Assembly: GCA_964473825.1 (NCBI GenBank)
Contig: CAYYQL010000012.1
Span: 1,561-65,560, forward strand
Length of the DNA: 64,000 nucleotides
From: an uncultured archaeon
GTDB taxonomy: Archaea > Asgardarchaeota > Thorarchaeia > Thorarchaeales > Thorarchaeaceae
Direction of reading: 5' to 3'
Numbering within the stretch: the first letter of the stretch is position 1; each line of letters opens with the position of its first letter. The notes under the pieces are model-generated. The model worked only from the letters and a program-made list of their open reading frames with translations, was not told the origin of the DNA and ran no database searches. Both the position numbers and the translations under genes were made by a program. This document shows positions 56,413-58,587 of the stretch, piece after piece.

Positions 56413-58587
56413 CTAGCGAAATCCTCCGCTTACACACGCAGAGTGACACGCAGAATGGCATGCGCTATGGCACACGCAAGCACTATGACATGCCGAGTGA
56501 CATGCCGAGTGGCACGCATCATGAGTGACACACGCTGAATGGCAAGCGTCATGTGATACGCAGCGACTTGTACCCTCAACGATTGGCTTCAGTGGCTCGC
56601 TGATAATGTTAGCTACGCCATTCATGACCTCACCGATAGTGCTAGTGACATTGGACATAATCTGGCCGGTTGTGGCAGCTATATCACCTACCACTCGACC
56701 CGCGCCGCTGATTGCATGACCTGTAGCATCAGCAACACCTCGGAACCACTCTGGAATATCTGGGGGAGAAATTGCACCGCCCGTATCCTTGAAGATGCCA
56801 CCGATTCGTGTGTCATGTCGTGGATGCATATACAACCAATACCAAGCCCAAGAATCATGATACCTTCTGTCGAAGTAATAGTCAGTCCGGCCATGGATCG
56901 TGGGGTTGGTCTCAAGCTCGTTCCAGGCCCCTTCAATCATCTCGTCATGATGCTCCTTGGTCGCCTCGAAGTCTGCATCCCATGATTTCTTCTGCACGTG
57001 TTCTCCAAGTTCGTCAATCATCTCATCGACCAGCTCTGGGTCCAACTCATTGTCCTTGATGGCCTCGAGGAACAGCTCCTCGTAGTAGGTCAGTTCCTCG
57101 AACTTGACGCCGGTCACCGAGAGCTTCAGTGGCTCAGAGGAAATTACTCGGACTGCTCCCTTCTTGACGCAGGACATGAGTATCATCGTGATAAGTTTCT
57201 GTCGGCTCGTGTTGAAGAAGAAAGCGGACTCGACAGGGTCTAGCTCTGCAACCGTCCCAGGGGTTCCATAGGTCTCAACTGCAATCTCTGGGCTCTCGTA
57301 GTCATAAGTGGTTTCATCCGCAGTCCACTTGGCCCCGTACGAGTATGTGACTTTCTTGTAGACGTAGTAGAGTATACCGAGCGCCATGATTCCTGATATA
57401 CCGATGATGAGGAGGTCAGGCGGTATCAGGGGTGGGATATACTCCCTTACGTAGACGTCGACTGTAAAGGTCCCGCCGACCGAACCCTCAGAGTTTTCTC
57501 CTGTAATAAGAAAGATGACTGTTAGAACCTCAGGAATGTTATCAGCCCTGAAAGTATAGGTTAGGTATTCGCTCTGACCACCCGCAAGATTCCCAATGTA
57601 TGTTTCGAGCGCTCCATAAATCAGAGTCATATTGTCAGGTAGTCCTAGAGTGACTTCAACATTGGACACTGCGCTATCACCGTAATTGAAGATAACTAGC
57701 TCGTATTCGAAATTGGTATCAGCATCCACATCTACATAGGTATCACCTACAACCCCAAGATCTCCCGGTTCTACATGGTCGGCATAGAACGACCAATTCG
57801 TGTACTGAAATACCTGCAACTTGTCATATGCATATGCGGGGTCAGCTGCTAGACTAACACTGAAGTTGCGGGGAGTTGTATCCTCGGCCGAAGGATATGC
57901 GAGAAGGTTGTTCTCATCGTATTCCCGAAGGGTTTCACCCGAGGAGAGGATGCCCTGTCGGTAGTCCTCCACGTACCCTGCATGAAGTGCACCTTCGGAA
58001 GTGATTCCACCTCCAGGTACTATCCACGCCTCATCCATCTCAATCGGATAGACTACCCGTACATTCTCATACAGCACATCGATACTCCATTGGACGGGCG
58101 CCCAGTTGAGAACACCGAAGTCGCCCGTGACAGGTTCTGAAGATCCCTCAAGAGTGTACTCTCCTGTAGTCTGTTCGATTATCCTATTCGTGCTGAAGTA
58201 TCCAAAGACTACTAGGACCTGTTCACCCTCAGGAGTACGGGGCACCCAATCCAGTTTGTAGCCTTGAGAGACCTTATCCACGATAAGGGAGTATCTTGAG
58301 CCACCCCATTCTACATAGGCACGGTTTGAGTCATATACACTGCTCTCTTGGATCCCGAATAGGTCGAATCCACCAAGCCCGCCACTCGCTGCCGTAAAAG
58401 TGATGAAATAAGTCACATTGATTCTGCCGTTCTGTAGGACGACAACATCAACATAGACGCTGTTGAGTGTCGGATCTGCTGCAAGATCTGCTGAACCACT
58501 GGCCGTATTGCAGGATGCAATCATCCCCACTATGAACAGACTGAGCAGACCTGCGACGTATCTTCTCTTCATTCGTTTCTCTCCCAT
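56413..58587 (-). CDS. single-pass membrane protein (DUF2207-like topology) with C-terminal (Cys-His-Ser-Ala)n repeat tail
   Basis: Signal peptide or lipobox-like N-terminus ([10 protein letters not shown]). About 390-aa ectodomain. Central TM helix [19 protein letters not shown]. About 300-aa cytoplasmic part ending [47 protein letters not shown]. Confidence 0.7.
   Translation of the reverse strand: [724 protein letters not shown]
56416..56571 (-). repeat. tandem 12-nt repeat (gtgacatgccga-type) encoding (CHSA)n at the C-terminus
   Basis: Directly visible periodicity in the nucleotide sequence (...acatgccgagtgacatgccgagtggcacgc...). Encodes about ten C-H-S-A tetrapeptide units, some with V or D substitutions. 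Confidence 0.8.

Follow-up and report, generated by a model that had tools for sequence, protein, structure and literature searches.

A cysteine-histidine repeat tail on a Thorarchaeota membrane protein as candidate substrate of a neighbouring PqqD-radical SAM-SPASM enzyme

The window analysed here, a stretch of 64,000 nucleotides from an uncultured archaeon of the Thorarchaeaceae (GenBank assembly GCA_964473825.1, contig CAYYQL010000012.1, positions 1,561 to 65,560), encodes a 724-residue membrane protein whose last 49 residues form a Cys-His-Ser-Ala repeat, hereafter the tail. The gene for a PqqD-radical S-adenosylmethionine (SAM)-SPASM enzyme lies 650 nt upstream of the tail gene and is divergently transcribed. 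On the strength of sequence comparisons, we consider it probable (roughly 0.7) that the tail, at the cytoplasmic C-terminus of a single-pass membrane protein (the carrier), is a substrate of the neighbouring enzyme and is modified by it post-translationally.

The repeat tail and its carrier protein

The tail gene and the parts of its product, as read from the open reading frame (ORF) list and the AlphaFold2 model with its predicted local distance difference test (pLDDT) scores, are the following.

56413..58587, minus strand: tail-carrying gene, 724 aa (ORF list, AlphaFold2)
about aa 1-26, minus strand: lipobox signal (MIASC) of the carrier, with a positively charged N-terminus and a lipobox-like cleavage site
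57445..58473, minus strand: all-beta extracellular region (ectodomain), aa 39-381 (AlphaFold2)
57343..57420, minus strand: single transmembrane (TM) helix, aa 390-415, followed by YKKV (sequence and AlphaFold2 helix H390-415)
56788..57255, minus strand: conserved cytoplasmic winged-helix and helical domain, aa 445-600 (pLDDT 85-97)
56416..56562, minus strand: Cys-His repeat tail, residues C676-R724 (translation and codon table)

The tail gene ends with (CHSA)3-C-V-(CHSA)3-C-VSGGFR before its TAG stop codon (56413-56415), letter for letter as the first-pass annotation had given it, and the ORF list shows the frame of the repeat to be intact. The tail carries 11 of the 13 Cys and 9 of the 19 His residues of the protein, and 7 of its 10 Cys-Cys intervals are four residues long. 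The back-translated DNA pattern of (CHxA)3C occurs twice in the window, as compared to 0.00 occurrences expected from 100 shuffles, and the autocorrelation of the tail region at lag 12 is 0.49, against about 0.25 at other lags. The annotation had described the DNA as near-identical 12-nt units. However, the mean pairwise nucleotide identity of the seven CHSA units is 69.8% (range 50-92%), which does not differ from the 72.2 +/- 2.9% expected from random draws of synonymous codons. The Ser codons are a mixture of TCN and AGY. Tandem Repeats Finder reported only a perfect stretch of 26 nt and 2.2 copies within the tail (56486-56511), a repeat search placed the tail copies at 64-79% identity to each other, and neither Rfam families nor inverted repeats were found in the tail region. 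Because the identity of the units matches the random-synonymous expectation, the codon comparison indicates that the 12-nt periodicity is a by-product, or shadow, of a peptide repeat under selection, and that the tail DNA bears no sign of a young or slippage-prone repeat.

The closest relatives of the carrier lead to the same point. A word-indexed protein search with the carrier returned only seven relatives, all from metagenome-assembled genomes (MAGs) of Thorarchaeota/Promethearchaeota and mostly truncated. In all eight Thorarchaeota-type loci (the window, L001, L012, L013, L048, L072, L113 and L126), the tail has the same 49-residue architecture, with 11 Cys, 9 His and seven CHxA units and with 0-2 amino-acid changes, and the bodies of the full-length carriers are only 52-58% identical. 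The window and L001 agree in 48 of the 49 tail residues, against 57% identity of their bodies. In nucleotide sequence, the window tail shares only 64-71% nucleotide identity with the other Thorarchaeota-type tails, and the tails of L001, L048, L072, L113 and L126 differ by 0 nonsynonymous versus 18-28 synonymous changes, with saturation at the synonymous sites. For the window against the others, the proportion of nonsynonymous differences (Nei-Gojobori pN) is inflated by Ser TCN/AGY switches, and the amino acids were compared directly instead. These comparisons indicate that every tail residue is under very strong purifying selection. Constant tail residues at saturated synonymous sites rule out an assembly artefact, a possibility that the annotation had raised, and the same tail architecture is encoded with other codons in seven independent Thorarchaeota assemblies and in JGI contig L132. 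They also argue against copy-number instability; the slipped-strand expansion or contraction that had been proposed for the locus does not agree with units that are about 70% identical, nor with an architecture that is equal in eight Thorarchaeota genomes.

Three contigs deserve separate mention. In L001 (GCA_048882945.1, JBHLRD010000156.1), an in-frame TAG lies just before the tail (4371-4373), at a position that encodes Glu in L048, L072, L113 and L126, and for this reason the gene call is split into a 636-aa product and a small ORF of its own. L149 has an in-frame TGA (1679-1681), with a shortened tail behind it. These stops could be nonsense mutations, consensus errors or recoding. The L002 contig (ENA ERZ9811299 NODE_26014) ends, at about 2490-2544, in a Nextera transposase adapter (CTGTCTCTTATACACATCT...), and therefore the C-terminus of its protein P0002 ('...GLSLIHI') is adapter-derived and the real tail is missing from the contig.

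As proposed in the annotation, other genomes were searched for the tetrapeptide repeat and copy numbers were compared among homologues. A DNA pattern scan for (CHxA)3C over one genome per species (GTDB) matched at least 120 loci, and about 90 of those listed are true C-terminal tails. Their carriers, about 510-730 aa long, cross the membrane once and end in (A-C-H-x)7-9...C-V-S-G-G. Among the matches listed, they span more than 15 bacterial phyla in addition to the Thorarchaeota: Anaerolineae and other Chloroflexota, Planctomycetota, Spirochaetota, Myxococcota, Acidobacteriota, Aminicenantes, Omnitrophota, Kiritimatiellae, Verrucomicrobiia, Gemmatimonadota, Desulfobacterota, Gammaproteobacteria, Clostridia, Nitrospiraceae and Elusimicrobia. 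Most of these organisms are anaerobes, and one cultured organism, Desulfobulbus alkaliphilus DSM 24258 (L088), carries the cassette. Ninety of the 92 tails compared contain 7-9 CHxA units, 90 contain 8-13 Cys residues (the remaining two contain 6), and 90 have their last Cys 4-6 residues short of the C-terminus. The Cys-Cys spacing is four in 729 of 817 intervals, and the usual endings are CVSGG[x][HR], CVSSF, CVSRF and CVSSGH.

More distant relatives carry other tails on the same body. An exhaustive HMMER search of 1.84 billion representatives yielded only 216 relatives at E<=1e-3, which share the TM helix and the cytoplasmic domain (query residues about 390-600). This body family also bears other Cys-repeat tails, notably SSCACACACAGCACACAGGGR and SCVCACVSCACACACVSCACACAGGGAG. 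The relatives with (Cys-Ala)n tails (P0057, P0066, P0073, P0078, P0083, P0090 and others; L157-L211) have 7 or 10 Cys and likewise a radical SAM/SPASM gene behind theirs, and 27 of 41 such tails have no His at all. The common theme of the tails is Cys, usually preceded by Ala, and His is specific to one clade. A word-indexed search with the tail alone gave 63 candidates and 4 matches, a severe under-report of the family. Scans of the bacterial carriers and the Cys-Ala-type relatives against Pfam and NCBIfam found no family at or above cut-off, and the source databases call these proteins 'hypothetical protein', save for one evident mis-annotation in IMG. Full-text searches (repeat sequences, Cxxx repeat with radical SAM, and ribosomally made, post-translationally modified peptide (RiPP) with Asgard) returned nothing relevant, though a description may exist in papers that they do not cover.

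The structural model places the tail inside the cell. Built on an alignment of 52 sequences, the AlphaFold2 model of the carrier has a mean pLDDT of 80. From about residues 601-603 onward, through the linker to residue 675 and then the tail, the confidence is low, and the tail itself (pLDDT 32-40) is probably flexible. Because the one TM helix (390-415) is followed by KK, the C-terminal 309 residues, including the tail, are predicted to be cytoplasmic. The positively charged N-terminus with its lipobox signal and the AlphaFold2 model agree with this topology, which supports the cytoplasmic location assumed for the tail in the annotation. The cytoplasmic domain (residues 445-600) is the part of the body common to all bacterial relatives: tblastn aligned it at 23-39% identity in nearly all of the tail loci, and the best HMMER-scoring stretches fall there.

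Pfam and NCBIfam scans of the carrier gave no family at cut-off. When the carrier model was compared with the PDB by Foldseek, ribophorin I/Ost1 ranked first (8b6l_O, E 5e-10; 6ezn_A), with TM-scores of only 0.2-0.34, and generic beta-sandwich proteins ranked next with similar scores. The likeness concerns the carrier only and consists of a signal peptide, a beta-sandwich ectodomain, one TM helix and a cytoplasmic helical region, whereas ribophorin bears no Cys-repeat tail. The Pfam Ribophorin_I family did not match the carrier, and the PDB profile search reached only E 0.21; the model suggests an architectural resemblance only. A ribophorin-like ectodomain is of interest in an Asgard archaeon, yet the bacterial homologs share the domain, and sequence-level support for the likeness was not found.

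The radical SAM enzyme and its coupling to the tail

The divergent gene upstream of the tail gene encodes the predicted maturase.

59237..60658, plus strand: PqqD(RRE)-radical SAM-SPASM enzyme, 473 aa, predicted maturase of the tail (Pfam)

The PqqD domain, which is the RiPP recognition element (RRE) of the enzyme, spans residues 37-93 (PF05402, 1.1e-08) in a region conserved in the bacterial orthologs. It is accompanied by a Radical_SAM domain (PF04055, 6.9e-28) and a SPASM domain (PF13186, 22.1 bits against a cut-off of 21.5). In the alignment with the bacterial orthologs, the CX3CX2C motif (C132/C136/C139) is invariant, as are the SPASM residues C346, C360, C378, C415, C418, C424 and C428, which include Cx2Cx5Cx3C. 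The enzyme thus combines the SAM-cluster motif, the full set of auxiliary-cluster Cys residues and the N-terminal PqqD-like RRE of an RRE-dependent radical SAM/SPASM maturase. Its nearest solved relatives by sequence are SkfB (2e-37), PqqE, the archaeal tetraether synthase, SuiB, CteB and anSME, and its profile aligns with SuiB from the RRE of the latter onward. SkfB, PqqE, SuiB and CteB are peptide-modifying enzymes that install cross-links. All of the NCBIfam matches of the window enzyme (the best being AhbD, NirJ2 and PqqE) were far below the cut-offs, and therefore it belongs to no curated equivalog.

The coupling of the two genes was examined in both directions. The forward test, from tail to enzyme, covered the 73 bacterial loci whose tail gene has 600 nt or more of sequence downstream. 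A full-length ortholog of the enzyme (38-50% identity) was present in 67 of them, on the same strand in 61, and its alignment begins a median of 39 nt past the stop codon of the tail gene. In the short ENA contigs L006, L007 and L008, the start of the radical SAM gene overlaps or abuts the tail gene stop. All four Thorarchaeota loci with upstream DNA contain the divergent radical SAM gene, at 71-78% identity and in the same arrangement as in the window. The reverse test, from enzyme to tail, used the best 80 relatives of the enzyme on JGI metagenome contigs, 76 of which had at least 300 nt upstream. A Cys-repeat tail gene stands beside about 73 of these 76 enzymes, nearly always directly upstream and on the same strand. 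Furthermore, enzymes that are 37-80% identical to that of the window accompany Cys-His tails, and those that are 29-38% identical accompany Cys-Ala tails. P0078, a protein with a Cys-Ala tail (L129), exemplifies the latter: a radical SAM/SPASM gene lies 25 nt downstream of its gene, and the encoded protein aligns with the window enzyme at 32% identity, N-terminal domain included. Behind it, L129 also has another radical SAM gene and one for a methyltransferase.

The tails found through the enzyme were chosen independently of the tail sequence, and they comprise 165 C-x3-C units. His directly follows Cys in 161 of these and Ala is the third residue after Cys in 162, while the position between them varies (Ser in 80%, Asp in 9%, and otherwise Asn, Gly, Ala or Gln).

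The bacterial enzymes nearest to that of the window (48-50% identity) come from Anaerolineae and other Chloroflexota (L009, L017, L019, L083 and L122), and their tails have the Thorarchaeota-type architecture with Val interruptions. This pairing suggests a transfer between the two domains, Bacteria and Archaea.

A radical SAM substrate had been one of the two roles proposed for the tail by the first-pass annotation, and the gene context strongly supports it (67 of 73 bacterial loci, four of four Thorarchaeota loci, about 73 of 76 enzymes in the reverse direction, and the co-variation of enzyme clade and tail type). Given this two-way coupling, the co-variation and the presence of a peptide-recognition domain on the enzyme, a relation of enzyme and substrate is the most economical explanation.

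Other genes at the locus

The other genes near the tail gene in the window are the following.

58719..59114, minus strand: p131, a conserved 131-aa protein between the radical SAM and tail genes, accessory of the cassette
55657..56412, minus strand: calcineurin-like metallophosphoesterase, 251 aa (PF00149, 1.9e-13)
54654..55586, minus strand: 310-aa protein with a Roc/Arf/Ras-like small GTPase domain (aa about 135-280)
52944..54173, minus strand: 409-aa protein with an HEYEH (HExxH-like) motif, recurring near the tail gene in Thorarchaeota

The gene for p131 lies directly upstream of the tail gene in four Thorarchaeota and four bacterial loci; in the window it shares an operon with the tail gene, from which the radical SAM gene diverges. 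The protein falls into at least 150 clusters, and among the 120 named ones listed, nearly all come from MAGs of Thorarchaeota or other Asgard archaea. Neither Pfam nor NCBIfam matched p131, and its AlphaFold2 model (pLDDT 76.6) gave no PDB fold match below E 0.02. As a core component of the system p131 was rejected, since an iterated hidden Markov model search found it in only 8 of 96 tail loci.

The start codon of the metallophosphoesterase gene abuts the stop codon of the tail gene. The same gene lies downstream of the tail gene in L001, L012, L013 and L072 and in no bacterial locus; it was rejected as a part of the system because it is confined to Thorarchaeota. The small GTPase protein, which has an N-terminal extension of about 130 aa with no domain assigned, was likewise rejected, as it was found in no other locus examined. 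Such small GTPases are typical of Asgard archaea.

In seven Thorarchaeota-type loci, an ORF on the downstream side of the tail gene (e.g. L113 2876-4195) groups with the 409-aa HEYEH protein. Searches of Pfam, NCBIfam and PDB sequences gave no match for this protein, which may represent a metallopeptidase not yet characterised; its membership in the system is uncertain. In about 50 bacterial loci, a third gene follows the radical SAM gene (e.g. L025 6042-7085, and L088 5071-6423, with the tail gene on the plus strand). Its product (about 340 aa) combines a pair of N-terminal TM helices with a C-terminal soluble domain and was matched by neither Pfam nor NCBIfam; the gene is absent from the window and from Anaerolineae-type loci. 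The neighbour clustering of the loci with Cys-His tails revealed no conserved protease or ATP-binding cassette (ABC) exporter.

The other tandem-repeat arrays in the window, two in number, encode poly-Thr. One (18673-18725) lies in a 1601-aa ORF (18567..23372, minus strand) just before the C-terminal hydrophobic anchor, and the other (45403-45434) lies in a Thr/Ser-rich region near the C-terminus of a 1084-aa ORF (45276..48530, minus strand).

Proposed maturation of the tail and competing explanations

If the tail is the substrate of the enzyme, the carrier would be inserted into the membrane in a Sec-dependent manner, leaving its C-terminal ~310 residues in the cytoplasm. The enzyme would dock via its PqqD domain onto the segment preceding the repeats, and would then act repeatedly, once per unit, at Cys or the adjacent Ala. 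The chemistry would be centred on Cys and the adjacent Ala because these are the only residues common to both tail types. Provided that modification occurs at all, SkfB, CteB and PapB offer the analogy for a series of intramolecular thioether cross-links of the sactionine or ranthionine type, a tentative assignment with the odds somewhat against it. The product would be a rigid, poly-cyclic segment still tethered to the membrane protein, and in the Cys-His clade the nearly invariant His residues would line up as a stripe with the potential to bind metal.

Several points weigh against modification of the tail by this enzyme. Gene neighbourhood cannot show whether the tail is modified, or how. 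A membrane protein of 510-730 aa is an unusual 'precursor' for a radical SAM enzyme, and the cassette has no conserved protease or exporter. The analogy to known chemistry is weak because the enzyme scores below every curated NCBIfam maturase cut-off. Metals or Fe-S clusters could be bound by an unmodified run of 8-13 Cys residues, to which this clade adds His. The radical SAM gene is absent from the fetched block in 6 of the 73 bacterial loci, some of which may be artefacts of the 8-kb blocks or paralogs (e.g. L021 versus L032 in one MAG), and in the reverse test, L133 and L191 have the radical SAM gene with no tail gene nearby.

The known systems of this kind resemble the cassette in part. 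Among curated families, the only one that any of the tails touches is TIGR04117 'Syntroph_Cxxx' / PF27846 (Cys-Xaa-Xaa-Xaa repeat radical SAM target); its members, curated as predicted targets of a radical SAM enzyme, likewise have a C-terminal Cys at every fourth residue and are encoded next to a radical SAM enzyme, as is the tail gene here. The TIGR04117 model, typed 'paralog', has 98 positions and describes small proteins of ~100 aa, whereas the tail carriers are membrane proteins of 510-730 aa with nearly invariant His and Ala, and the window carrier has 724 aa with a signal peptide, an ectodomain and a TM helix. Neither model matched the window tail at E<=10; the bacterial proteins P0008, P0009 and that of L010 scored 14-16 bits against the TIGR04117 cut-off of 50, and the PF27846 match on P0008 is flagged 'weak'.

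The ranthipeptide and sactipeptide systems (CteA/CteB SCIFF, PapA/PapB freyrasin and SkfA/SkfB) share the combination of RRE, radical SAM and SPASM domains with a Cys-rich C-terminal region. In PapA, repeated C-x3-D motifs are each cross-linked. On the other hand, the substrates of these systems are short, exported leader-core peptides, whereas here the substrate would be membrane-tethered and has no Asp, Thr or Met acceptor at a fixed position. In place of a short precursor with a protease and exporter there is a large membrane protein, and the neighbour clustering of the Cys-His tail loci brought up no conserved gene of either kind. The window enzyme scored 90.2 bits against the PapB cut-off of 340 and 106.9 bits against the StsB cut-off of 625, and the L010 ortholog scored 78 bits against the SkfB cut-off of 300.

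The QhpD/QhpC pair of quinohemoprotein amine dehydrogenase provides a conceptual likeness, in that the product stays on the protein. The radical SAM/SPASM enzyme QhpD forms several Cys thioether cross-links in QhpC, which is retained as a functional subunit with no release of a natural product. QhpC differs, however, in being a small periplasmic subunit without a periodic repeat. The ACGX-repeat (TIGR04340) and His-Xaa-Ser (HxsA/HxsB/HxsC) proteins are predicted radical SAM targets with short-period repeats as well. Their units are the four-residue Ala-Cys-Gly-Xaa and the three-residue His-x-Ser, respectively, as compared to A-C-H-x here, where the residue two positions after His is Ala (98% of units) rather than Ser. 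The window enzyme scored 102.2 bits against TIGR04340 (cut-off 400) and 109.5 bits against HxsC (cut-off 267.9). The system therefore resembles those that pair an RRE-radical SAM-SPASM maturase with a Cys-rich target, yet falls outside each of them. Most likely, as far as the sequences allow, it is an uncurated radical SAM system of broad phylogenetic range, directed at the cytoplasmic tail of a membrane protein.

The strongest competitor, which we regard as improbable, builds on the other role proposed in the annotation, a cytoplasmic metal-binding or metal-sensing tail. It takes the tail as an unmodified cytoplasmic metal-binding or metal-sensing segment (Zn, Ni, Cu(I)) or Fe-S segment, with the radical SAM enzyme as its client, its redox partner or an unrelated protein. 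The composition of the tail (11 Cys and 9 His in 49 residues at a fixed i/i+4 spacing), its cytoplasmic location and the 98% conservation of His directly after Cys in Cys-His-type tails would all suit such a function. The helices of the copper storage proteins Csp1/Csp3 are lined with Cys one turn apart, and metallochaperones such as HypB, UreE and SlyD bear His- or Cys-rich tails. However, metal binding is not the common denominator of the family, because (Cys-Ala)n tails, 27 of 41 of them devoid of His, occur on the same body and beside the same enzyme family. The enzyme has a peptide-binding PqqD/RRE domain, and its sub-clade co-varies with tail type, as expected for an enzyme and its substrate but not for a generic partner; nor did AlphaFold2 fold the tail into a helix or bundle with confidence. 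Once matured, the product may still bind metal, which would be compatible with modification of the tail by the enzyme.

A smaller chance still remains for the tail as the core peptide of a secreted RiPP, cleaved and exported from a membrane protein that serves as a giant leader or scaffold. An RRE-radical SAM-SPASM enzyme with a Cys-rich C-terminal core is typical of sactipeptides and ranthipeptides, and the HExxH-like protein near the gene in Thorarchaeota could be seen in the same light. Nevertheless, the lack of a conserved protease or ABC exporter in the neighbour clustering of Cys-His tail loci argues against secretion, the only other widespread neighbour being the 2-TM protein of about 50 bacterial loci that is absent from the window. 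The tail lies on the cytoplasmic side, and the conservation of both ectodomain and cytoplasmic domain across phyla is unexpected for a disposable leader.

Finally, a hypervariable simple-sequence tract (contingency locus) or an assembly artefact without specific function, for which the 12-nt periodicity, the 26-nt perfect stretch of 2.2 copies and the in-frame stops before the tail in L001 (TAG) and L149 (TGA) might speak, is effectively refuted by units at the random-synonymous identity of ~70% where long identical ones with copy numbers varying among close relatives would define such a locus, by the same 49-residue architecture in different codons in eight independent Thorarchaeota assemblies, by the 7-9 CHxA units of 90 out of 92 tails, and by the intact frame in the window.

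What modification by the enzyme would mean for the cell can be sketched only speculatively. It is conceivable, though on balance doubtful, that the enzyme makes a ladder of cross-linked Cys units, with a His stripe in the Cys-His clade, that is tethered at the inner face of the membrane on a ribophorin-like protein and acts as a metal-handling, redox or transmembrane-signalling module; such a module, common to Chloroflexota-type bacteria and Asgard archaea, would be of ancient origin or have undergone wide transfer, and would have sister versions built of Cys-Ala units. The presence of the cassette in the cultured D. alkaliphilus DSM 24258 opens the hypothesis to direct testing, and the strict pairing of enzyme sub-clades with Cys-His-x-Ala or Cys-Ala tails amounts to a natural experiment on substrate recognition. 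Radical SAM/SPASM enzymes with recognition domains are known chiefly as makers of small secreted peptides. If the proposed modification is true, their chemistry would extend to a tethered, protein-borne product, nearer to QhpC and cofactor biogenesis than to an antibiotic peptide.

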